Virus record (IMG/VR): IMGVR_UViG_3300045988_088815
Coordinates: 32,001-96,000 of that record
Strand: one strand, 5' to 3'
Source: a virus
DNA length: 64,000 nt
Positions 12,630-60,119 of this stretch are shown here, piece after piece. The translations under genes and the position numbers were made by a program. The notes beneath the pieces were generated by a model. It was not told the origin of the DNA. It ran no database searches and saw only the letters and a list, made by a program, of their open reading frames with translations. How positions within the stretch are numbered: the first letter of the stretch is position 1; each line of letters starts with the position of its first letter.

Positions 12630-13139
12630 TTACATTTTCAAAAAGTCTTCTATATCTATGTACTCAATACCGAAATTCTCCGCACATTGTTTGTCGGAGT
12701 CCGAGAAGTCACCTTCTTTTCCGCTAGCATCACCTATCATTATCAGCTCACTTTTCTTCCAAGAAGAATACGACTCAAGCATTCCTGTATTTGGCTTTCT
12801 CATTTCTATCTCTGCATGCGATGGGCAATACATAGAGTTGACGAAGATATTTCGTCCGGTATGATTGCGAAGATATTTTTGCATAAAGCTTTCAATAGCC
12901 TTAATCTTGCCGATAAAATCCTGTTCGTCAACAAATTGAGGGATGCCTCCTTGGTTTGAGACTATTTCAACATAGTAAAGAGTAGGGAATGCATCTACAA
13001 TCTTATCCAAAACCTCTTTACGGATTTTGAAATCTGTTACATCTGTAGGAAAGGTGTTTCCTGATATAGTTGTAATAATCGTGTCGTCTAAATCAATGAA
13101 TAATACTTTTTTCTTGATTAAATATCCTTTTTCTGTCAT
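12630..13139 (-). CDS. HAD-superfamily phosphatase, polynucleotide 3'-phosphatase / GmhB-like
   Basis: DxDxT motif (FIDLDDTII), SNQGG, RKPNTGML and a GDxxxD-like IGDASGKEGD motif. Confidence 0.7.
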   Translation of the reverse strand: MTEKGYLIKKKVLFIDLDDTIITTISGNTFPTDVTDFKIRKEVLDKIVDAFPTLYYVEIVSNQGGIPQFVDEQDFIGKIKAIESFMQKYLRNHTGRNIFVNSMYCPSHAEIEMRKPNTGMLESYSSWKKSELIMIGDASGKEGDFSDSDKQCAENFGIEYIDIEDFLKM

Positions 13140-13205
13140 AATTTTGCTTTTTTTCTATATTGATATATTAATATCTTTATCTACGAAAATTAAGTTTGTA
13201 AAACA

Positions 13206-13251
13206 CAGTTGTTTCGGTGTGTCTCACCATTTTTATTACAATGCAAAGATA
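13206..13251 (-). promoter_or_regulatory. promoter (-7 TATCTTTG) plus conserved leader motif, copy G
   Basis: The minus strand reads TATCTTTGCATTGTAATAAAAATGGTGAGACACACCGAAACAACTG. Confidence 0.6.
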
Positions 13252-16927: not shown

Positions 16928-17545
16928 TTAAGCACGCACAAACTTGAAACCAAATTTTTCAGTATAGTATTCCTCTTTAGGGTGTCTTTTTGTCTCGGAG
17001 TCATAGCAGAGAATAAACGGCTCACCCTTAGAGTAGAAATAGTTATAAGACTTTCGCAAATACATCTTTGCATTCAAAGCCTTTGGGGAGAGCTTTCTTA
17101 TTCTTAACCTAGTTTCTTGAGTCTTACCCGACAACACTCTAAGTTCATCCATTTTATATTGCATATGCAGCTTTCTTCCTTTACTAGCATACTTTTCTTT
17201 ATTCCAATAGCTTCTCAAAGACCTGTTACGCTCTTTACGAATCCTATTTATCGTTTCTACATCGTGTTTCAAGCCAAGCTTACTGACTTGTCCTAATATT
17301 GTAGACTGAGGAATATTCGTTACTTCTGAGATTTCTCTCGCTGTCATCGTTTGGTACATGTCGGAGATTTTGCGGATAGTCTCATTATTCAATTTATTGT
17401 CTATTTTCGTACCACCTAAAATAGTGATATACTTGTATAATGTATGTAAGGTTACACCAGCAGCCTTGGCTACTTCCTTTCGTGGGTAGTCATTGATGTG
17501 GACTTTGATATAGTCCATCTGTTCTTGTGTTAATCTTCTTGGCAT
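16928..17545 (-). CDS. dual helix-turn-helix DNA-binding protein (tandem paralog 1)
   Basis: Two HTH-like segments (EVAKAAGVTLHTLYKYI, REISEVTNIPQSTILGQVSKLGL). The C-terminus GEPFILCYD...KFGFKF is shared with the neighbour. Confidence 0.6.
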   Translation of the reverse strand: MPRRLTQEQMDYIKVHINDYPRKEVAKAAGVTLHTLYKYITILGGTKIDNKLNNETIRKISDMYQTMTAREISEVTNIPQSTILGQVSKLGLKHDVETINRIRKERNRSLRSYWNKEKYASKGRKLHMQYKMDELRVLSGKTQETRLRIRKLSPKALNAKMYLRKSYNYFYSKGEPFILCYDSETKRHPKEEYYTEKFGFKFVRA

Positions 17546-18171
17546 TCTTCGTCCTCCTCAAAAGAAAATCCGTATTTGTTCTTGTAGAATTCTTCATCCA
17601 TTCTGCGAGTATTCCGGTCATAACCTAAGATGTATGGTTCACCTTCAAACGCAAAATACCCATACTTATTTATAAGATGGTACTTGGCATGATATGATTT
17701 TATCGGCATTTCTGAAAATTTGAATTTCGTCTGCTGCGGAATACAGGATATAACTCGGAATTTCTCCATCTGCATAGTTCTTTGCCAGCTTTTCACCCTT
17801 TTGCCAATAGTTGCTTTATCATATGCTTTTTTTAAGTTAGCCAAACTATTCTTTTTAAGTCTTTCGATAGTTTCTTCAGAATGAGTAAGCTTTAGCCTTT
17901 TAGCTGCCTTGCCTACCGTAGACGGATGGCAGCCTACAATTACTGCAATCTCTCTGACCGAATGGTCAGGATATAGTTTCGTGATTTGTTCATCACGTTT
18001 CTTGTCGGGTTGCGGAACAGGTCTTTTATGTTCGATTTTACAATTGCAATCATGTAGAATCTTATACAAGAATTTCACGCTGACACCCATTCTTTGTGCC
18101 AACTTGTATCTTGGTCGTTCATTTATGTGCGCCTTAATAAAGTTTATTGTGTCTTGTTCTATAACTTTCAT
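17530..18171 (-). CDS. dual helix-turn-helix DNA-binding protein (tandem paralog 2)
   Basis: KLAQRMGVSVKFLYKIL and REIAVIVGCHPSTVGKAAKRLKL, with C-terminus GEPYILGYD...KYGFSF. Confidence 0.6.
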   Translation of the reverse strand: MKVIEQDTINFIKAHINERPRYKLAQRMGVSVKFLYKILHDCNCKIEHKRPVPQPDKKRDEQITKLYPDHSVREIAVIVGCHPSTVGKAAKRLKLTHSEETIERLKKNSLANLKKAYDKATIGKRVKSWQRTMQMEKFRVISCIPQQTKFKFSEMPIKSYHAKYHLINKYGYFAFEGEPYILGYDRNTRRMDEEFYKNKYGFSFEEDEECQED

Positions 18172-18178
18172 TTTTATT

Positions 18179-18218
18179 CAGTTTTTGTGGTGTGTCTCAC
18201 CTGTTTTTTGCAAAGATA
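18179..18218 (-). promoter_or_regulatory. promoter (-7 TATCTTTG) plus conserved leader motif, copy F
   Basis: The minus strand reads TATCTTTGCAAAAAACAGGTGAGACACACCACAAAAACTG. Confidence 0.6.
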
Positions 18219-20630: not shown

Positions 20631-20638
20631 TATCTTTG
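20631..20638 (+). promoter_or_regulatory. -7 promoter box TATCTTTG
   Basis: Exact TAnnTTTG match. Confidence 0.5.
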
Positions 20639-20644
20639 CAGCGT

Positions 20645-20764
20645 GCTTTGTTGGTGCTGACACGCTTACAAGAATCAATAAGATTTTCCGTGGCGAAAGC
20701 CATACCACGATAATCCTTACCTAGATTTCGGTGTCAGACGAATGAAGGGTAAGGATTTCTTTTT
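20645..20764 (+). ncRNA. structured leader or small RNA ending in an intrinsic terminator (possible attenuator)
   Basis: AGCGTG/CACGCT stem, TGGC-GAAA-GCCA tetraloop hairpin, then a 10-bp stem AATCCTTACC/GGTAAGGATT plus TCTTTTT. No ORF; no further -7 box before ATG 20872. Confidence 0.4.
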
Positions 20765-20871
20765 AGAATCCTTGTTTTGAGTCGAAACATTCTTAGATTG
20801 CTCTAGGTTAGCAATGGGCAATAATTGTTGGAGTAGGCGAAACACAGATAAGGTAAACAAATAAGGAATTT

Positions 20872-25664: not shown

Positions 25665-25775
25665 AAAGAAACACATTAAAACGCTTGCATGTTTCGAATA
25701 TTCTTTGTATCTTTGCATTGCAATTAAGAAATAAAGGTTATTAATTTGAAAAGGTGAGACACACCATAAAAACTG
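25665..25775 (+). promoter_or_regulatory. promoter/leader cassette copy A (upstream element, -7 TATCTTTG at 25708, leader GGTGAGACACACC at 25753)
   Basis: About 110 bp homologous to 31964-32074 and 59611-59723. Confidence 0.7.
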
Positions 25776-25778
25776 GGA

Positions 25779-26090
25779 ATGATGACAAAAAAGGAAATAA
25801 TAAAACAATGGTTGGATGAGCCGAAAGTGAGATATTGTAATAATTCTAATTTCACTTTGGGTTATGGTGATGGCTGGGATTGGGTTAAAGATGTTCTACG
25901 ACCAGCTATCACGAAGAACGCTATGTTTCTCAGATTCTTGGAGTATGGTTTCCGTGAGATAGAAGAGTTTTTGAAATCAAAAACCGGAAAACCGAGCGAA
26001 GAGGATTGTTCCTTGTATTCTGTTGGATATAAGGATGGTGTCAATGATGCCATGATTGCAATTAAGAATAGATTTGAAAATTTAAAATAG
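25779..26090 (+). CDS. hypothetical protein
   Basis: 103-aa ORF starting 3 nt after the leader motif. Confidence 0.6.
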   Translation: MMTKKEIIKQWLDEPKVRYCNNSNFTLGYGDGWDWVKDVLRPAITKNAMFLRFLEYGFREIEEFLKSKTGKPSEEDCSLYSVGYKDGVNDAMIAIKNRFENLK

Positions 26091-29814: not shown

Positions 29815-29859
29815 TATCTTTGCAAGTGAATTTCGGTGAGACACACCTTTCAAAAACTG
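29815..29859 (+). promoter_or_regulatory. promoter (-7 TATCTTTG) plus conserved leader motif, copy D, driving tnpB
   Basis: TATCTTTGCAAGTGAATTTCGGTGAGACACACCTTTCAAAAACTG. Confidence 0.65.
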
Positions 29860-29875
29860 GTTAAAATTTAAGAAT

Positions 29876-31012
29876 ATGATTTCATACAAGTACAAGCTAT
29901 ATCGGACGAAGAAGACGAAGCATTTGGATAAGATGCTCCGTGAGGCTTGCTATGTTTGGAATCACGCTCTTGCCTTGCAGAAGAGATATTATAAGCTGTA
30001 TCACAAGTACATTCCAAGATTTACTATGTATAAGCATTTCTCTAAGTGTTATAAACCAACATTGCTTAATTGTCAAACAGTTAGGGAGGTGTTGGATAGA
30101 TTGGATATATCTTACAAGCGTTTCTTCAAGCATGATGCGAAGCGTCCACCAAAATTTAAGAAAGCAATAGAATTTGGTTCATTTGCCTTTCAACAAAATG
30201 GCTATTCCCTTAGTGGAAACGAGTTTGTGATAAACAAGATAAAGAAGTCATTTAAGTTCTCTCTGAGCCGTCCCTACGATGGTAAGGTCAAGAGGGTGTC
30301 GGTCAAGCGAAACAAGTTGGGCGAGTACTTTATCGTCCTTTGCTTAGACAAGCAAGCCGAGTCTTACGGAAAGTCACATGATGGTGCATCCGTGGGCATC
30401 GACTTTGGATTGAAGAAGTACATGACTTTGAGCGATGGGCGTGAGATTGATAATCCTCAGTTCCTTAAAACTGACTTGTTGGAGCTTAGACGCAGGTCTC
30501 GCAACCTCTCGAAGTGCAAGAAGGGCAGCAATAACCGCAAGCGCAAGAAGCTGGAGTTGGAGCGATTGTATCAAAACATCGTGAACAAGCGTTCCGATTT
30601 CCAGTGGAAGATGGCGCATGAGTTGTGCAAGCGTTATGACTTGATTTGCTTGGAGGATTTGAACTTGGAGGGAATGAAGCGTAATTGGGGACGCAAGATG
30701 TCTGACTTGGCTCATGGCGATTTCGTTGTGAAGTTGGAACACGTTGCGAAAAAATATGGCGTTCAGGTTCATAAGATTGACCGATTCTTCCCTTCGAGCC
30801 GCCTTTGTACTTGTGGTTATAAGAATGATAAGCTGTCATTGAGTGATAGGGTTTGGACTTGTCCTATTTGTGGTGCAGTTCATCCTAGAGACCTCTTTGC
30901 AGCTGAGAATATACTTCGGCAGGGCATTGCCGAATTGGGTAGTGGTAGTAAGCCGTCCGAGCAATCGCAAGGGTGCAGCCACGTTAGTCACCCAACAATT
31001 CCTTGCAAGTAG
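29876..31012 (+). CDS. tnpB: TnpB (OrfB) RNA-guided nuclease
   Basis: RuvC motifs GIDFGLK, CLEDLNL and HPRDLFAAENI, plus the zinc finger CTCGY...CPICG; typical YKYKLY N-terminus. Confidence 0.9.
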   Translation: MISYKYKLYRTKKTKHLDKMLREACYVWNHALALQKRYYKLYHKYIPRFTMYKHFSKCYKPTLLNCQTVREVLDRLDISYKRFFKHDAKRPPKFKKAIEFGSFAFQQNGYSLSGNEFVINKIKKSFKFSLSRPYDGKVKRVSVKRNKLGEYFIVLCLDKQAESYGKSHDGASVGIDFGLKKYMTLSDGREIDNPQFLKTDLLELRRRSRNLSKCKKGSNNRKRKKLELERLYQNIVNKRSDFQWKMAHELCKRYDLICLEDLNLEGMKRNWGRKMSDLAHGDFVVKLEHVAKKYGVQVHKIDRFFPSSRLCTCGYKNDKLSLSDRVWTCPICGAVHPRDLFAAENILRQGIAELGSGSKPSEQSQGCSHVSHPTIPCK

Positions 31013-31963: not shown

Positions 31964-32074
31964 AAAGAAACACATTAAAAAGTTTGCATATTTCGGATAT
32001 TCTTTGTATCTTTGCATTGTAATTAAGAAACAAGGTTACTAATTTAAAAAAGGTGAGACACACCACAAAAACTG
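31964..32074 (+). promoter_or_regulatory. promoter/leader cassette copy B (-7 at 32007, leader motif at 32052)
   Basis: The 64-nt core differs from copy C at a single position. Confidence 0.7.
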
Positions 32075-32084
32075 TAAGAAGAAA

Positions 32085-32345
32085 GTGGAAAAGAATAATG
32101 TTTATGTAGAGGTGTTGACAAAGATTGCCAGCCTCATGGGTAGAACAAAGGAGTCTATCCAGATGTCGTCTTCAAATACTCATACGAGTATTACGATGTT
32201 TGCCGAAAATAATAGCAAGATTATTGGAAATTGGTATTTTGATGCTTCCGATAGCAAGGAGTTGGTGGATGCTACCTTCAATGGTCTGAAGGCTTTGGTT
32301 GAGTCTCTTGAGCACAATAAGAGCAATGACGGACAAGCAGCGTAA
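32085..32345 (+). CDS. hypothetical protein (GTG start in track; start uncertain)
   Basis: 86-aa ORF directly after the leader motif. Confidence 0.5.
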   Translation: MEKNNVYVEVLTKIASLMGRTKESIQMSSSNTHTSITMFAENNSKIIGNWYFDASDSKELVDATFNGLKALVESLEHNKSNDGQAA

Positions 32346-35521: not shown

Positions 35522-35563
35522 TAACTAACCATCCTGCAAGGGATATAAATAGAAGAGAATATG
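35522..35563 (+). repeat. intergenic unit U2 (hairpin, GGGATATAAATA, AGAAGAGAATATG)
   Basis: TAACTAACCATCCTGCAAGGGATATAAATAGAAGAGAATATG. Confidence 0.6.
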
Positions 35564-36343
35564 AAGGAATTAAGAAAGAAAACATTTAAGAATGGTGTCG
35601 TGTATTGCCTTCAATTAGAAGATGGTTTCCTTGTTGAAACGACAGATACATTCTTGCCTTATTACACCAAAGATGCAATAGGCAGACATCAGAATAAGCT
35701 CGACAACAATGAGCTTGGCGACCGCACGGAACGTTGGATGATAGGAGTATCTACAATGAGTGGGTGTCCAGTAAGATGCAAGTTCTGTGCTACAGGCAAC
35801 ATGAAACGTTATCGCAATCTTACGGCAGAAGAAATTGTTGAACAGGTTGAATTTGCCATCAACAAGGCAGGTGCTGACCCAAGCAAAGCAAAAGAGTTTA
35901 AGATTAACTATACTCGTATGGGCGAGCCATTCCTCAATATTGATGCAGTCAAGGATGCTATCCGCATTATTACTGAGAAATACCCAAATACTCATCATTA
36001 CGTATCAACGATTGGCATTAAGGGAAGCGATTTCTCTTTCATTAAGGGAAATATTACGTTACAGATTAGCTTACATTCATTTGATGATGACAAGCGTAAT
36101 TGGTTGATTCCTTACAAGAACAAGATGACTATTCAAGAGTTAGGTCAGATTCGCACAGAAAGCAATCTGAAGACTACAATCAATCTTACACTTGTTGACA
36201 CTTCCGATTTTGATGCAGAAAAGCTGAAAAAATGGTTTGATAAGGAGCATTTCTTCGTGAAGTTGTCTCCTATTAATGTGAATAACATATCAGAGAAAAA
36301 TCACCTCGGCAATGGTGTTGTAGAAGGAATTAATTTAGTATGA
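35561..36343 (+). CDS. RlmN/Cfr-family radical-SAM methylsynthase core, C-terminally truncated and lacking the resolving Cys
   Basis: VET..., GVSTMSGCPVRCKFCATG (CX3CX2C in the RlmN context), RNLTAEEIVEQV, RMGEPFLN, STIG, LQISLH and KLSPIN align by eye with E. coli RlmN residues ~100-320. Confidence 0.8.
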   Translation: MKELRKKTFKNGVVYCLQLEDGFLVETTDTFLPYYTKDAIGRHQNKLDNNELGDRTERWMIGVSTMSGCPVRCKFCATGNMKRYRNLTAEEIVEQVEFAINKAGADPSKAKEFKINYTRMGEPFLNIDAVKDAIRIITEKYPNTHHYVSTIGIKGSDFSFIKGNITLQISLHSFDDDKRNWLIPYKNKMTIQELGQIRTESNLKTTINLTLVDTSDFDAEKLKKWFDKEHFFVKLSPINVNNISEKNHLGNGVVEGINLV

Positions 36344-37107
36344 AAAAGGGTATTTTCAGATATAGAATTATCACAAATCTGAATTGCAACATGAACGAAA
36401 GTACAGGAGTAAACGGAAATTGTTACTTCTGCTACCAAAAGTTTAAGTCACCATTGCGACTGGATTGTGATAAGATGGAGGAAACTTTGAAGAAGGTTGG
36501 TGTTCTGAAAAGAGCAACTATCATGGGAGGCGAAAGCTTGCTCAATCCAGATTTGGTAAAGATTGTAAAGATAGTCAGCAACTATACATCTGATGGTATC
36601 TGTCTTGTTACAAATGGAATACTGCTTAATGAGGACATCATCGTTGCATTGAAAGATGCCGGATTAACTGAGGTTGCTATCAGCGTGTCTTCTATCGAAC
36701 AGTACGAAAGACGTAGAGATATGGCACTTCTGTGTAAGGAGATTATTCCAAACACAAGAATAAACATTCCTAAGTGCAAGGAAAGTTTGAATCCACAACT
36801 ACTGAAAACAATACTATCAGATGGTTTCTATAGCATTGTATGCGAAGATTTACAGGCAAGGTATGGTGAGATAAGACTCCCAGATGGTTCTGTAAAGGTT
36901 GGTGATGACGGATATGGATTCTATGATTACAAGTGGAATGGACATACATTTGGAGTATTTGGCAATTATGGGAAGTACAACAGAAGCGATATTATCATAA
37001 CTCCTCTTGGAAATTTCTGTGATTGGGAAAAGTATTGCAAGGCCGTTAAGAACAATGAGCTTGTAAGAAGAAATAATCATATTGATGATGACAAAATTGT
37101 GCATTGA
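36340..37107 (+). CDS. second radical-SAM enzyme (MoaA/SPASM-like core) with spaced cluster motif CX11CX2C
   Basis: ITNLNCNMNESTGVNGNCYFC, IMGGESLLNP and LVTNGILL; ATGA overlap with the upstream gene. Confidence 0.65.
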   Translation: MKKGIFRYRIITNLNCNMNESTGVNGNCYFCYQKFKSPLRLDCDKMEETLKKVGVLKRATIMGGESLLNPDLVKIVKIVSNYTSDGICLVTNGILLNEDIIVALKDAGLTEVAISVSSIEQYERRRDMALLCKEIIPNTRINIPKCKESLNPQLLKTILSDGFYSIVCEDLQARYGEIRLPDGSVKVGDDGYGFYDYKWNGHTFGVFGNYGKYNRSDIIITPLGNFCDWEKYCKAVKNNELVRRNNHIDDDKIVH

Positions 37108-45472: not shown

Positions 45473-45510
45473 TATCTTTGCATACATAAAGTGAGTCACA
45501 CAAAAAACTG
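45473..45510 (+). promoter_or_regulatory. promoter (-7 TATCTTTG) plus variant leader motif, copy E
   Basis: TATCTTTGCATACATAAAGTGAGTCACACAAAAAACTG. Confidence 0.55.
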
Positions 45511-45517
45511 AAAAATT

Positions 45518-46234
45518 ATGGAAATTGACAAAAACAAAGTGTATTATTCAAAGGAAGGCTTTGCCTTTCATGTAGTGAAGTATAATGCAAAAAGTAATTA
45601 TTGTGTATGCTTTGCTTACGAGCAAGGGTTTATGCAAAGTATTCTGATAACCGAGTTAGATAATTTCCCATCTTTTAAGCTGTATGGAAAAGCTTATTTC
45701 GATGTAAATGTGATAGAAGAATATGATAAGAAAAGAAAGTCTTTGGCATTTAGAACATGGAGTAGTATATTACACCGAGTTGGGGAATTTAGTTATAAAA
45801 ATGTTGATGTTTGTAAGGAATGGTTATTATTCTCACGTTTTGAGATTTTTCATAATAAATGGTATAAAAAAGGATTTGTGATAGATAAAGATTTACTATC
45901 TGGAGAGGATAAGATTTATTCTCCTAATACTTGCACTTACATGCCGGGTTATTTAAACAATTCTATTAGTTCAGAATTTAATAACCATCTTTATTCTTTT
46001 AGTTACTCGAAAGGTCAATATAGTTTTGTTATAGCGGAAGTAAAGACAAGAGTTTGGGCAAAGACTTTAAAGGACATAATTCATAAGTTTGCTGTATACA
46101 GGTGTATGCGTGTGCGGACTTATTATAATACTTGTTGTAAAGACTTACGTCCAGAGGCAAGGGAAAAAATTAATAAGGTGTATCAAGTGGAATATTTGGA
46201 GAGGCACATAAAGGAACACTTAAAGGAGGATTAA
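45518..46234 (+). CDS. free-standing homing-endonuclease-like protein
   Basis: AFRTWSSILHRV...YKNVDVCKEWLLFSRFEIFHNKW...IDKDLL...YSPNTCTYM resembles the W-x-x-M-x-x-R / VCxEW / DKD...YSPxNC pattern of phage HNH-associated proteins; by eye only. Confidence 0.5.
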   Translation: MEIDKNKVYYSKEGFAFHVVKYNAKSNYCVCFAYEQGFMQSILITELDNFPSFKLYGKAYFDVNVIEEYDKKRKSLAFRTWSSILHRVGEFSYKNVDVCKEWLLFSRFEIFHNKWYKKGFVIDKDLLSGEDKIYSPNTCTYMPGYLNNSISSEFNNHLYSFSYSKGQYSFVIAEVKTRVWAKTLKDIIHKFAVYRCMRVRTYYNTCCKDLRPEAREKINKVYQVEYLERHIKEHLKED

Positions 46235-46300
46235 TCCTCCTTAAGTTGATTCCCATATTAATAGGTCTACCCCAAAGAAGACAAGCTAACTTGGTTGGCA

Positions 46301-46624
46301 CTATTTCATATTTGAAGAAGTTTCCAGCTTATCAACAATAGAACGAAGTTCTTGCAAGGAAGACGCTACAAATGTATCTCCATTTTCTGAGCGGACAAAT
46401 GCACAGAAGTTAAACCTAGGTGAACACTCGTAGTAGATGTCTTCTGGGTCAACAAACAATTGCCAAGTTGGAACACCAAGAAGTTGTGCCATTTCTTCCA
46501 ACCTCGCTTTTGTAGGGTTGCCATTGATAATGTTAGGGATACTTTGCTTGGTTATCCCTAACATCTTAGCAAAAGTAGTCTTTGTGATGCCTTTTTGCTT
46601 TAATATTTCTTCTAGTCTATACAT
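46301..46624 (-). CDS. XRE-family repressor-like HTH protein
   Basis: LEEILKQKGITKTTFAKMLGITKQSIPNIINGNPTKARLEEMAQLLGVP. Confidence 0.8.
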   Translation of the reverse strand: MYRLEEILKQKGITKTTFAKMLGITKQSIPNIINGNPTKARLEEMAQLLGVPTWQLFVDPEDIYYECSPRFNFCAFVRSENGDTFVASSLQELRSIVDKLETSSNMK

Positions 46625-46665
46625 ATTATATATATATTAAATGATTGTACGAACTTATTCGTTTG

Positions 46666-46673
46666 CAAAGGTA
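46666..46673 (-). promoter_or_regulatory. -7 box TACCTTTG for the repressor gene
   Basis: CAAAGGTA on the + strand, 42 nt upstream of the minus-strand start. Confidence 0.45.
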
Positions 46674-46811
46674 CGATTAAATTACGAAAGTAAGAAGAAA
46701 ATATTACTAATAAATGTGAATAAACATGATGGTTTGAATATATTCGTACTAACGAAGGTTAAATATAAGAAGATTTTCATACTTTCTCTTGGTAATATGA
46801 GAAGATATTCG

Positions 46812-46819
46812 TACCTTTG
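46812..46819 (+). promoter_or_regulatory. -7 box TACCTTTG for the rightward operon
   Basis: TACCTTTGCAATGTCTT; 14 nt shared with the hicA promoter. Confidence 0.45.
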
Positions 46820-46908
46820 CAATGTCTTTAAGAGATAAAGGCTTTAAAGTTTAACTATTAATTGCTGTTATGCAGCCGAGTCGGCACTCGTAAAACGGTA
46901 TAGTGATT

Positions 46909-47238
46909 ATGGCTACTACATTAAGAAATACATTGAGTGAGGTAATGAAGCTTGCTTGGCAGTTCATCAAGAAGAACGGCTATACAATGAGCGAGGCTTT
47001 AAAGGTTGCTTGGATGAACATCAAGCTGAAGGGTCAGATGAAGAAGCGCATCGTGAAGTTCTACTTTCAGAAGGTTGATGGCAGCTTGCGTGAGGCATTC
47101 GGCACATTGAGCGAGAAGGTTATCCCAGCTACACAGGGTGCAGGTCGCAAGATGAATGACACTTGTCAAGTGTACTTCGATACCGAGAAAGAAGAATGGC
47201 GTTGCTTCAAGAAGGCAAACCTTATGAGAGTTGCATAA
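46909..47238 (+). CDS. DUF2693-like protein
   Basis: RIVKFYFQKVDGSLREAFGTL...QVYFDTEKEEWRCFKKANL resembles the family common on Bacteroidales mobile elements; by eye. Confidence 0.5.
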   Translation: MATTLRNTLSEVMKLAWQFIKKNGYTMSEALKVAWMNIKLKGQMKKRIVKFYFQKVDGSLREAFGTLSEKVIPATQGAGRKMNDTCQVYFDTEKEEWRCFKKANLMRVA

Positions 47239-47270
47239 CAGATTTCTAACGATTTAAAAAGAAACTAGAT

Positions 47271-47570
47271 ATGAGCGCAAAGATTATCGTGATGCAAGGC
47301 AACATGGTTGCAACCATCGAAGAGACGAACAAGGACGCATTTCTCAAGCGTGGAGAGTATAAAGAGACCGAGCTAGACAAACGCAAGCGTGAGGTTGATT
47401 TCTTGATTACAAGCATCGCAAACCGCTACGAAGTGACATTCAATCACAAGGTAGAGCTGAAAGAAAGCCGAAGCATCAAGAAAAGCGAGTATTTCGATAA
47501 CATCTACTACGTTACCGAGAACGCATTGAACAAGCTGAAAAAGCAATACTCATACGAGTGTGACTTGTAA
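47271..47570 (+). CDS. hypothetical protein
   Basis: 99-aa ORF. Confidence 0.55.
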   Translation: MSAKIIVMQGNMVATIEETNKDAFLKRGEYKETELDKRKREVDFLITSIANRYEVTFNHKVELKESRSIKKSEYFDNIYYVTENALNKLKKQYSYECDL

Positions 47571-47631
47571 TAGATTTCGTGAGGCACACGCTAAACTGCA
47601 CCGGACTTTGAACATTAAATATTTAAGAGAT

Positions 47632-47928
47632 ATGGATAAGAATTTGAAGGATGCTCTTTATGTTGAGCATAATGGCAGGATTGGTGTTTTAAGCTCAGAT
47701 GAGAATAAGGTGGTATCGCAGGTTATCGGCACGGATTTGACGCTTGTGTACGACAAGAAAGAGGGTAATACGTACCTTTTGATACCACTAACCCGAAACC
47801 ATAAGTTCGAATGCAAAAGTAGCCACATTATCGTGGATGGCAAGCGGTTCGATTCTGACATCTTTTTCCGCAAGGATGCTTGCCAATGGATTGAGATTGA
47901 CAAAGAAACGTTATCTAAGGTAGCGTAA
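47632..47928 (+). CDS. hypothetical protein, paralog of 13300-13644
   Basis: 98-aa ORF from an internal ATG; shared LIPLT..H.FE...VDG.R..S..F motif. Confidence 0.55.
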   Translation: MDKNLKDALYVEHNGRIGVLSSDENKVVSQVIGTDLTLVYDKKEGNTYLLIPLTRNHKFECKSSHIIVDGKRFDSDIFFRKDACQWIEIDKETLSKVA

Positions 47929-50890: not shown

Positions 50891-50898
50891 TATCTTTG
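50891..50898 (+). promoter_or_regulatory. -7 promoter box TATCTTTG for hicAB
   Basis: Exact TAnnTTTG match 33 nt before ATG 50932. Confidence 0.5.
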
Positions 50899-50931
50899 CA
50901 ATGTCTTAAGGACAAAAGAGTTCTTGTAACA

Positions 50932-51114
50932 ATGAAGAAAAGCGAATTGATTAAGAGACTGAGAGAAGCGGGATGCTTCCTGTCTCGACAAGGTTCGGGA
51001 CATGAAAAATGGACTAATCCTAAAACGGGAAAGTCTCAATTCGTGCCAAGACACGCTAGAGAGGTCGCCACAGGCACCGCTCATAGTATTCTAAGAGAAT
51101 TGGTTGGGGAGTAA
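50932..51114 (+). CDS. hicA: HicA mRNA-interferase toxin
   Basis: MKKSELIKRLREAGCFLSRQGSGHEKWTNPKTGKSQFVPRH is the canonical HicA pattern. Confidence 0.85.
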   Translation: MKKSELIKRLREAGCFLSRQGSGHEKWTNPKTGKSQFVPRHAREVATGTAHSILRELVGE

Positions 51115-51183
51115 TCCCCACCTTTCTCTCTTCATTGCTTAAAGGACTCTTTTTTTTTGTTAAGAAGATAAACGAATATATAT

Positions 51184-51582
51184 ATGAAGAAGATTAAAGT
51201 TATTGTAGAACAAGCCAAGGATGGGTCTTTTTGGTGTCATACCGAAGATGGAATAGGTAAGGTTGGCTTAAACTCTTGTGGAGAAACTGTTGCCGCTGCG
51301 AAGCAAGATTTAATGGATTGTTTGGCGTTGGCAAAAGTGGATGCAAAAGAGAATGGAGAAGTGTTTCCTGACGTTGAATTTGAATACAAGTATGACTTGC
51401 AATCTTTCTTTAATTATTTCTCTTTCCTCAATGTGTCAGAGATTGCAAAACGAGCAGGTGTCAATCCTTCATTGATGCGTCAATATAGTAAAGGCATAAA
51501 GCAAGCTGGCGAGAAAACTTATGAACGTTTGGCGCATTGTATGAATGAAATAAAAAAAGATTTGGTAGCCGCTACCTTTTAG
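51184..51582 (+). CDS. hicB: HicB-family antitoxin with C-terminal HTH
   Basis: The N-terminus IVEQAKDGSFWCHTED...GETVAAAKQDLMDCL is HicB-like; C-terminal VSEIAKRAGVNPSLMRQYSKG. Confidence 0.7.
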   Translation: MKKIKVIVEQAKDGSFWCHTEDGIGKVGLNSCGETVAAAKQDLMDCLALAKVDAKENGEVFPDVEFEYKYDLQSFFNYFSFLNVSEIAKRAGVNPSLMRQYSKGIKQAGEKTYERLAHCMNEIKKDLVAATF

Positions 51583-59576: not shown

Positions 59577-59610
59577 TTTTGAGTCTAAGCGTATAATAAG
59601 CGTTAAAAGA

Positions 59611-59723
59611 TAAAAGAAATACATTAAATAATTTGCACATTTCAAATATTCTTTGTATCTTTGCATTGTAATTAAGAAACAAGGTTACTAATTTTAAAAA
59701 GGTGAGACACACCTTAAAAACTG
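59611..59723 (+). promoter_or_regulatory. promoter/leader cassette copy C (-7 at 59656, leader motif at 59701)
   Basis: Near-identical to copy B across the -7 box, spacer and GGTGAGACACACC. Confidence 0.7.
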
Positions 59724-59732
59724 TGATTCGTT

Positions 59733-59954
59733 ATGAATACTAGATTGAGTAAGAAAGAAACAATGGTTTATGGCAATATCGAAGTGATGGCTGATGTAAT
59801 TGGGGGTAACAAGTACTTTACATTTGCTGAGTTGTATGATTTCGATTTGGATAATACCAAGGATGAGTTGAAAGAAATCTTAAACTCTTTGACAGAGAAA
59901 GGCTACTTGAAGAGTTTTCACGATTTCTACGAAACTTATCGAGTTTTAAAGTAA
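59733..59954 (+). CDS. hypothetical protein
   Basis: 73-aa ORF 10 nt after the leader motif. Confidence 0.55.
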   Translation: MNTRLSKKETMVYGNIEVMADVIGGNKYFTFAELYDFDLDNTKDELKEILNSLTEKGYLKSFHDFYETYRVLK

Positions 59955-60000
59955 GAACGATAAAGGGGATATAAATCCCCTTACAATATAAATTTAGAGC

Positions 60001-60020
60001 GTGAGACACACGTAAAACTG
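60001..60020 (+). promoter_or_regulatory. partial leader motif, copy H
   Basis: GTGAGACACACGTAAAACTG, preceded by the hairpin AAGGGGAT-ATAA-ATCCCCTT (59963-59982). Confidence 0.4.
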
Positions 60021-60119
60021 TATTGAAACAATGAAAAAGGTATTCACAATTGAGAATGCATTAGCATTTTTGTTTGCTCTTGAAATAGTATCATTAATAT
60101 TTTTTCTAGGATAGGGCTT

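Follow-up and report, generated by a model that had tools for sequence, protein, structure and literature searches.

The question raised by this locus is why a single motif of 23 nucleotides (nt) should stand, on both strands, upstream of unrelated genes in a viral genome. The motif was noticed in a stretch of 64,000 nt (the window; positions 32,001 to 96,000 of IMG/VR record IMGVR_UViG_3300045988_088815) which is part of an uncultured human-gut tailed phage with 96-98% identity to the faecal contigs MT835610 and MT836190. The host of this phage appears to be a member of Segatella/Prevotella, since near-identical pieces occur in contigs binned with Segatella copri. Read in the most plausible way, the motif represents a cis-acting RNA module with which the translation initiation region of the next gene would begin at its 5' end.

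The hairpin unit and its copies in the window

The unit comprises a hairpin of 4 base pairs (bp) with the pentaloop A-G-N-C-A, a linker of 1-7 nt and an A-run ending in CUG. Its hairpin, GGTGAGACACACC, occurs in six exact copies (13216-13228 and 18189-18201 on the minus strand; 25753-25765, 29835-29847, 32052-32064 and 59701-59713 on the plus strand), and a seventh match, CGTGAGACACACG at 60000-60012, carries a compensatory change at both ends (CGTG...CACG). With up to two mismatches allowed, GGTGAGACACACC was matched seven times against 0.6 expected, a number reached in none of 100 shuffles; the 23-nt form gave five matches against 0.0 expected, and a generalised scan (stem of at least 3 bp, AGACA, AACTG) seven against 0.14. 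A covariance model (R1), built from an alignment (A1) of 70 non-identical units, recovered nine copies with E values of 2.7e-7 to 4.1e-4, the next match having E 1.2. All nine are intergenic, in a window of which 12% is intergenic (P about 5e-9), and all nine are co-oriented with the downstream open reading frame (ORF). The initial annotation had listed eight places, and its motif coordinates and its distances to -7 boxes and start codons proved correct; the variant GTGAGTCACAC at 45491 was confirmed as a copy and one more, at 47578-47598 with the loop AGGCA, was added by the covariance model alone. The copies are as follows.

25753-25775, plus strand: copy 1, GGTG-AGACA-CACC (25753-25765), AT, AAAAACTG; start codon at 25779; R1 36.0 bits, E 1.3e-6
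32052-32074, plus strand: copy 2, hairpin, AC, AAAAACTG; GTG start at 32085, 10 nt past the CTG, with ATG or GTG at identical spacing in orthologues; R1 38.8 bits
59701-59723, plus strand: copy 3; ATG at 59733, 9 nt past the CTG; the downstream gene (59733-59954) encodes 73 amino acids (aa)
59999-60022, plus strand: copy 4, CGTG-AGACA-CACG (60000-60012) with the compensatory pair G1C/C13G, then T and AAAACTG; 45 nt past the stop of gene 59733-59954, without a -7 box; 10 nt past its CTG lies a 27-aa hydrophobic ORF, 60031-60114 (MKKVFTIENALAFLFALEIVSLIFFLG), conserved in many related phages
29835-29859, plus strand: copy 5, upstream of tnpB (ATG at 29876); linker TTTC
45489-45512, plus strand: copy 6, GTG-AGTCA-CAC plus AAAAAACTG; ATG at 45518 (HNH endonuclease-like gene); R1 28.9 bits, E 6.5e-5; the AGTCA loop was found also in loci L015 and L026
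47577-47600, plus strand: copy 7, CGTG-AGGCA-CACG (47578-47590), CT, AAACTG; ATG at 47632; R1 25.6 bits, E 4.1e-4; it begins 8 nt past the stop codon 47568-47570, and its AGGCA loop was met again in other phages
18177-18202, minus strand: copy 8, hairpin 18189-18201; ATG at 18171 (helix-turn-helix, HTH, protein)
13204-13229, minus strand: copy 9, hairpin 13216-13228, tail AACAACTG; an exception in spacing, the next ORF (PNK3P phosphatase) beginning 66 nt downstream, at 13139

The search was extended to public viral contigs with the pattern GTGAGACACAC-N(1-8)-AAACTG, which returned at least 110 loci. Next to the units found in this way were others, outside the search pattern, with identical loop and tail and with different but complementary arms, so that the arms observed include GGTG/CACC, CGTG/CACG, GTGC/GCAC, GGGG/CCCC, AGGG/CCCT, GAG/CTC and CGG/CCG. 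Covariation is seen at each of the four pairs in the alignment of 70 units: the share of paired cells is 95% (66.6% when shuffled), cells changed on both sides number 58 against 14.8, and the covariation score of 0.594 (0.113 shuffled) was equalled by none of 500 shuffles and by no slid control (0.175 at most). Because these units had been picked for having a stem, a second scan fixed only the loop, the tail and the spacing to the start codon and left the stem free. Among its 60 new loci stem length was bimodal, either 0-2 bp, as in chance matches inside genes, or 4-6 bp (31 of the 60), and new arms appeared (GTGG/CCAC, AAGG/CCTT). The fifth pair outward is random, and the stem is therefore set at 4 bp. 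The loop is AGACA in 99 units, AGGCA in 12 and AGTCA in three. The stem GGTG...CACC with loop AGACA, proposed in the initial annotation from the window alone, is thus borne out by four covarying pairs around a fixed loop.

An asymmetric conserved loop between freely covarying 4-bp arms marks a single-stranded nucleic-acid hairpin and not a duplex protein operator. This signature, together with the location downstream of promoters and the strict sense orientation, points to a motif that would act as RNA; mismatches in the arms (seven G-U against one A-C) give a weak hint for the sense strand. The predicted stability of the hairpin is weak, about -4.4 to -4.9 kcal/mol, and outside it the leaders are no more structured than shuffled sequence (z about -1.3 to +1.2). 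Two other ways of using the unit were considered. Pairing with an antisense or small RNA was rejected, since no complement of the loop or of the tail was found elsewhere in the window. An upstream mini-ORF, GTG-AGA-CAC-ACN-TAA, can be read in some units only and is therefore not general.

Register with the start codon and reuse in mobile elements

The distance to the promoter and the distance to the start codon behave differently. The promoters of the window are recognized by a -7 box which we take to be that of Bacteroidota, on the Bacteroides consensus TAnnTTTG. The TATCTTTGCA box occurs in ten intergenic copies, of which seven carry the motif 9-37 nt downstream, and across the seven window copies concerned the interval from box to hairpin is variable over that same range. 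The promoter features that belong to the motif are listed here.

29815-29822, plus strand: -7 box TATCTTTG, 12 nt upstream of the hairpin of the tnpB copy
45473-45480, plus strand: equivalent -7 box, before copy 6
18211-18218, minus strand: equivalent -7 box, before copy 8
13244-13251, minus strand: equivalent -7 box, before copy 9
25667-25775, plus strand: cassette of promoter, leader and motif, about 110 nt long, with TTTG at -33, the -7 box TATCTTTG at 25708-25715, a 37-nt leader and the motif

Further copies of this cassette occupy 31966-32074 and 59615-59723, and the three-way similarity stops exactly at the CTG. The 37-nt leader between -7 box and hairpin (..GTAATTAAGAAACAAGGTTACTAATT..) is itself conserved and contains an imperfect, AT-rich palindrome, which might serve as a DNA operator in its own right.

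The interval to the start codon is constrained. When the loci were collapsed to distinct downstream peptides, with gene starts taken from our own ORF calls, 103 gene families were obtained, 69 of them without a Shine-Dalgarno (SD) sequence. Among the SD-less families the end of the CTG lies 8-10 nt from the start codon in 42 of the 69 (7-11 nt in 49), and the end of the hairpin 17-20 nt from it in 45, the module spanning positions -32 to -10 relative to the start codon. The genes of the window have an adenine peak at -14 to -11; the same peak is known from Flavobacterium johnsoniae, in which A-12 and A-13 stimulate translation and this region is near ribosomal protein S1 (Baez et al. 2019, PMC6847099). 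In Bacteroidota elements, where some 9 nt separate the CUG and some 19 nt the hairpin from the start codon, the A-run comes to lie over this Bacteroidia determinant: at the modal spacing of 9 nt it occupies -17 to -13 and overlaps the -14 to -11 stretch at A-13 and A-14. The host version, in contrast, is an A-rich tract alone, whereas the motif adds the CUG and a hairpin with invariant loop and is found also in SD-using Bacillota.

The unit appears to serve single genes. Two copies flank one small gene both in the window (59701 and 60000) and in locus L115 (3760 and 4023), where the second copy fills an intercistronic gap of 43 nt. These paired copies, the end of the cassette similarity at the CTG and the beginning of copy 47578 at 8 nt past a stop codon argue that the unit acts on the translation initiation region of individual cistrons and not on whole operons. 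The initial annotation had seen in the motif an RNA-level or operator function and not a part of the core promoter; an RNA-level element fits its place in the transcribed leader, its covarying arms, its constrained distance to the start and its free distance to the promoter.

The motif was found to recur widely in viral contigs and integrated elements. The unit is present in more than 200 fetched loci from phages and integrated elements of Bacteroidota and Ignavibacteria, all of them obtained with patterns that fix part of the motif (loop, tail). A scan of one genome per species with GGTGAGACACACC-N(1-6)-AAAACTG, covering the GGTG/CACC arm version alone, gave 49 loci against about 6 expected by chance on a rough estimate. 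These belong on the one hand to Prevotella/Segatella/Hoylesella, Chitinophagaceae, Rikenellaceae and Ignavibacteria and on the other, in the Bacillota, to Lachnospiraceae, Eubacteriales, Erysipelotrichaceae, Faecalibacterium and Ruminococcus. Their contexts are prophages or other mobile elements, with terminases, ArdC-like and Mob proteins and modules of SNF2, PAPS-reductase and ParB as neighbours. Among them are genes likely to be expressed first when the element enters a cell, for instance in cassettes that are ArdC-like or that have a strong host-type promoter. A conserved cassette in metagenome-assembled genomes of Rikenellaceae, Ignavibacteria and lake Bacteroidota (L115 2647-4467; also L123, L133, L151 and L159) has the order ArdC-like gene, terminator, motif, 72-aa Zn-ribbon-like gene, motif, 137-aa gene.

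In all, more than 100 genes with no relation to one another, carried by mobile elements of two phyla, have the unit in front of them. No protein family common to Bacteroidota-type and Bacillota-type loci emerged from all-against-all clustering of the ORFs of 160 loci. The recurrence of the module in mobile elements from two bacterial phyla makes it likely that we are dealing with a portable, previously undescribed signal which acts on translation start. Of the earlier proposal of a phage-specific translation or stability element, the role in translation or stability stands as the best reading, and the restriction to one phage had to be given up, since in Bacteroidota and Ignavibacteria the unit is carried by many phages and integrated elements that are unrelated, and in Bacillota phages it forms tandem arrays.

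In the Bacillota loci two to four units stand head to tail with a period of 24-28 nt. Each array follows an intrinsic terminator and a hairpin, GCC-CGAA-GGC with AAAACUA. Its final CUG is in contact with the SD (AAAGGAG or GGAGG) of a scaffold gene (PF06810, Phage_scaffold, formerly Phage_GP20), and the array opens the scaffold-capsid-tail operon; no sigma-70-like promoter lies between terminator and SD. The assignment of the scaffold gene in locus L004 has an E value of 5.7e-7 and 30.1 bits, below the 35-bit cut-off of the family. The units of one array differ in their arms and abut without spacers, each CUG lying 2-7 nt before the next hairpin, and in 41 Bacillota loci (342 kb) all 82 matches of the covariance model fell within one array per locus. 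Directly upstream of terminator and array a conserved ORF of 55-90 aa (MKIRVIHDFYDKENDL..ERG.YLV) was observed in L004 (6615-6791) and in 14 other Bacillota loci; it has no relative in Pfam or PDB and no homologue in the window.

Comparison with described RNAs began with Rfam 15, which gave no match in the whole window at gathering score, unrelated noise and nothing at the motif at E<=10 in 59600-60100 and 46250-47700, a single tRNA in seven Bacillota loci at gathering score, and no match in the array region L004:6700-7000 at E<=10. Structured-RNA candidates before GP20 genes have been described, namely GP20-a (RF02991) and GP20-b (RF03003) of Rfam and six candidate structured RNAs (csRNAs) of Fremin et al. 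2023 (PMC10690425). The Bacillota arrays, though not the copies of the window, occupy the same place in phages of gut Bacillota, no more than 25 nt ahead of a PF06810 gene. However, RF02991 and RF03003 do not match the arrays even at E<=10, and in none of the reports is a connection made with single units standing ahead of unrelated genes in Bacteroidota elements. The array may be identical with one of the six csRNAs, for example with that associated with Lachnoclostridium.

The small riboswitches preQ1-I and guanidine-II (mini-ykkC) resemble the motif in their very small size, their covarying hairpin stems with fixed loops and their position immediately before the ribosome binding site; preQ1-I has an A-rich 3' tail as well. 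The preQ1-I fold, however, needs a loop of at least 9 nt and an H-type pseudoknot, whereas the loop of the motif has 5 nt and AGNCA is, by inspection, not complementary to AAAACUG. Guanidine-II is built of two hairpins with ACGR tetraloops, unlike AGNCA, and the single copies of Bacteroidota allow no loop-loop dimer. In contrast to both, the genes downstream of the motif are mutually unrelated, and neither riboswitch model matched in Rfam. A search of the literature with the literal motif sequence returned primer noise only, and no matching motif is reported in the papers on RbpB (a Bacteroides RRM protein) and phage bS21. What is unusual in the motif is the combination of reuse across phyla, single and array forms, and a fixed register with the start codon.

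Candidate readings of the unit

The preferred reading, to which we assign a probability of roughly 0.4, is that of an enhancer or landing pad at the level of the host ribosome. Loop and tail would be read by a conserved trans-acting factor at the mRNA exit/platform side of the 30S subunit, preferably the host initiation machinery itself (S1/platform region), and the hairpin would keep the landing pad single-stranded whatever sequence lies upstream. The module would then be a portable signal for high-expression initiation which mobile elements have joined to strong promoters and to the proteins needed in the greatest abundance. A reader belonging to the host is favoured because unrelated elements without a common protein carry the unit, because it precedes genes that act before any element-encoded protein exists, because it is paired with the strongest promoters and with the scaffold gene, and because the A-run sits on a known Bacteroidia determinant. 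Tentative at best is the wider proposal of a "viral initiation handle", specific to mobile elements and shared across phyla, which would be read by the 30S subunit independently of SD pairing, or by a widely distributed RNA-binding factor, and attached to the genes needed first or most strongly.

Several points weigh against a ribosome-level enhancer. A generic one might be expected in host genes too, and the unit is restricted to mobile elements, with no core host gene among the 49 genome loci found with one arm version. In the Bacillota an enhancer seems superfluous beside a strong SD. Cooperative binding of a protein, or cleavage at multiple sites, would better explain arrays of two to four abutting units. 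The pairing of an invariant loop with a linker of variable length is, moreover, typical of the sites of a specific RNA-binding protein. Two copies of the window stand far from a start codon, 13216 on the minus strand by 66 nt and 47578 with its start 33 nt past the CTG. BLAST of the motif and of the arrays against GenBank phages met uncultured faecal contigs only and no cultured phage. In addition many loci are related, so that the counts overstate the number of independent events, and the evidence is purely computational; an effect on expression may be one of stimulation or of repression. Beyond phages, BLAST gave only chance matches in plasmids and no match in 5,426 E. coli genomes.

Some of these points lead directly to the next candidate, a translational operator, in which an RNA-binding protein encoded by the mobile element or by the host would bind loop and tail and block or activate entry of the 30S subunit, cooperatively so on arrays. 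It is the strongest of the alternatives, although still unlikely. The bipartite signature (invariant loop, variable linker, single-stranded tract), the position inside the ribosome footprint and the head-to-tail units with a period of 24-28 nt directly at the SD are what such an operator would show. T4 RegA on early mRNAs, the MS2 coat-protein hairpin and CsrA sites are likewise small elements in the ribosome footprint of many mRNAs, and CsrA leaders, with several hairpin-loop sites of which the last is at the SD, resemble the arrays; unlike these, the motif has the loop AGNCA and not GGA or ANYA, and no homologue of these proteins was identified. Structured leaders before GP20 scaffold genes, moreover, recur without explanation (PMC10690425). 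A candidate binder is encoded in the window, a stand-alone Sm-like WYL_2 protein (former DUF2693; 46909-47238, E 5e-24) of which related phage loci have one or two paralogues and in whose operon a motif copy lies 340 nt downstream. Its gene and an XRE-type HTH gene (46301-46624, minus strand) are divergently oriented. The protein has an SH3-barrel fold and is a possible nucleic-acid binder; for the WYL superfamily an Sm-like fold and nucleotide or nucleic-acid binding have been predicted (PMC4012209). The operator is opposed by the lack of any protein family common to Bacteroidota-type and Bacillota-type loci. WYL_2 was found in no Bacillota-type locus, and the small ORF upstream of the arrays, which is absent from the window, is unrelated to it, a kinship that was rejected at an hhalign probability of 5.6%. 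Furthermore, genes of early entry need to be expressed before any element-encoded protein exists.

Processing or stabilization of the mRNA is distinctly less probable. A host endoribonuclease of both phyla, for example RNase Y, would cut at or near ...ACUG, separating the downstream cistron with a short, ribosome-protected leader, and the hairpin or a preceding terminator would protect the upstream fragment. RNase Y prefers to cut after G near a stem-loop, and in the arrays the next hairpin follows 2-7 nt after each CUG; intercistronic copies lie just past stop codons or terminator-like hairpins, and the Bacillota arrays stand between an intrinsic terminator and the SD of highly expressed scaffold/capsid genes, with no sigma-70-like promoter between. 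An invariant loop, on the other hand, is not expected at sites of the RNase Y or E type, and the single units of Bacteroidota have no downstream hairpin. Nor is the hairpin at a fixed distance from the predicted 5' end, and it is therefore not a 5'-terminal stabiliser.

Processive antitermination of the nut type, in which a boxB-like hairpin and a single-stranded box would be loaded onto RNA polymerase past early promoters or at the head of the structural operon, is improbable. The resemblance to lambda nut (boxA plus boxB) is in a small hairpin with fixed pentaloop beside a conserved single-stranded box, in leaders downstream of strong, early promoters; the layout at 59656-60022 (promoter, motif, small gene, terminator-like hairpin, motif) recalls lambda pR-cro-nutR, and the arrays are placed at the start of the scaffold-capsid-tail operon. 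But the order of the two parts is reversed with respect to lambda, and by inspection no boxA consensus (CGCUCUUA / UGCUCUUUAACAA) lies beside the hairpin in the nine copies and 70 units, where the flanks are A-runs plus CUG with no CUCUUU. The loop AGNCA is not GNRA-like, and no N-, Q- or NusG-like protein was recognized by Pfam in about 100 window ORFs or by PHROGs in 10 of them, although an N protein may well be too short and divergent to be recognized in this way. The motif is instead set relative to start codons, and its fixed distance of 8-10 nt has no rationale in antitermination; several copies may share a transcript, and two within 262-300 nt would be redundant. The Bacillota array, finally, follows a terminator instead of preceding it.

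A role at the DNA level is very improbable, be it as operator of a phage repressor, for which the initial annotation had named the dual-HTH proteins encoded at 16928-18171, or as a single-stranded DNA hairpin for a transposase, a relaxase or an N4-like RNA polymerase. The motif does lie just downstream of promoters, the position of a roadblock repressor; one of the HTH genes carries it, and tnpB is present. Yet the variable, covarying arms and the invariant, asymmetric centre are the reverse of what a dyad operator would show, namely conserved half-sites with a tolerant centre, and the spacing to the start codon is left unexplained. The dual-HTH proteins are poor candidates as binders for the same reason and because their family was seen in six closely related loci only, no protein family being shared by both types of locus. 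A stem of 4 bp cannot extrude from duplex DNA. The N4-like hairpin promoter was rejected, the giant ORFs of 2307 and 2087 aa being a tail protein and a tape-measure protein and not RNA polymerases; no RNA polymerase gene was found in the fetched loci of small Bacillota contigs of the siphophage type (16-44 kb).

Equally remote is an anti-defence decoy, by which abundant leader RNAs would mimic a type III antitoxin or a CRISPR repeat: the element is confined to mobile elements, its hairpin and A-rich units come in tandem, and Prevotella and Lachnospiraceae exchange defence systems, but, unlike CRISPR repeats, RNA anti-CRISPRs or type III antitoxin arrays, the units differ in their arms and are not repeats of one unit, they have no spacers, the array is followed by a scaffold gene and no toxin gene, and the distance to the start codon is again left unexplained.

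Neighbouring features of the window and significance

Among the structural and lysis genes of the window are those for an SPP1-type portal, the 2087-aa tape-measure protein, the 2307-aa tail protein and a GH108 lysin. Others encode DNA methyltransferases, ThyX, TnpB, an HNH endonuclease, a PNK3P phosphatase, an ASCH protein and several HTH proteins, and neither an RNA polymerase nor a tRNA was found in the window. Two of the genes behind the motif deserve mention. The tnpB gene (29815-31012; IS200/IS605-type, phrog_506) stands behind a consensus promoter of its own and a copy of the motif, an arrangement kept in 12 other loci; no tnpA was seen. The gene at 12630-13139 on the minus strand, behind a motif-bearing promoter, encodes a polynucleotide 3'-phosphatase of the PNK3P type (E 3.5e-21), which may serve in repair of RNA or DNA ends.

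Other promoters and genes of the window stand apart from the motif. At 20631-20871 about 240 nt free of ORFs separate a perfect TATCTTTGCA promoter from gene 20872; the stretch folds at -63 kcal/mol (z = -2.3), has no Rfam match and may be a non-coding RNA or a structured leader. In the region 50891-51582 a motif-free consensus promoter precedes a HicA-like small ORF (MKKSELIKRLREAGCFLSRQGSG...) and a 132-aa ORF (51184-51582; putative HicB), just before the tape-measure gene; the pair may be a toxin-antitoxin system, its names being given from sequence and position alone, with no family match. Two neighbouring radical-SAM proteins followed by a methyltransferase-like ORF (35561-37107) may form a module of nucleotide or DNA modification.

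The manner in which SD-less Bacteroidota choose and rank their start sites, and in which their gut phages are translated, is only partly understood. A module of 25 nt that is easily mutated, and that precedes upwards of 100 unrelated gene families of two phyla, offers a direct experimental handle on these processes. The motif may also account for at least one of the unexplained structured leaders before phage scaffold (GP20) genes. If the module boosts or gates translation, it would provide a compact expression part for genetic tools in Bacteroides/Segatella as well as an annotation marker for early or high-expression cassettes in uncultured gut phages.

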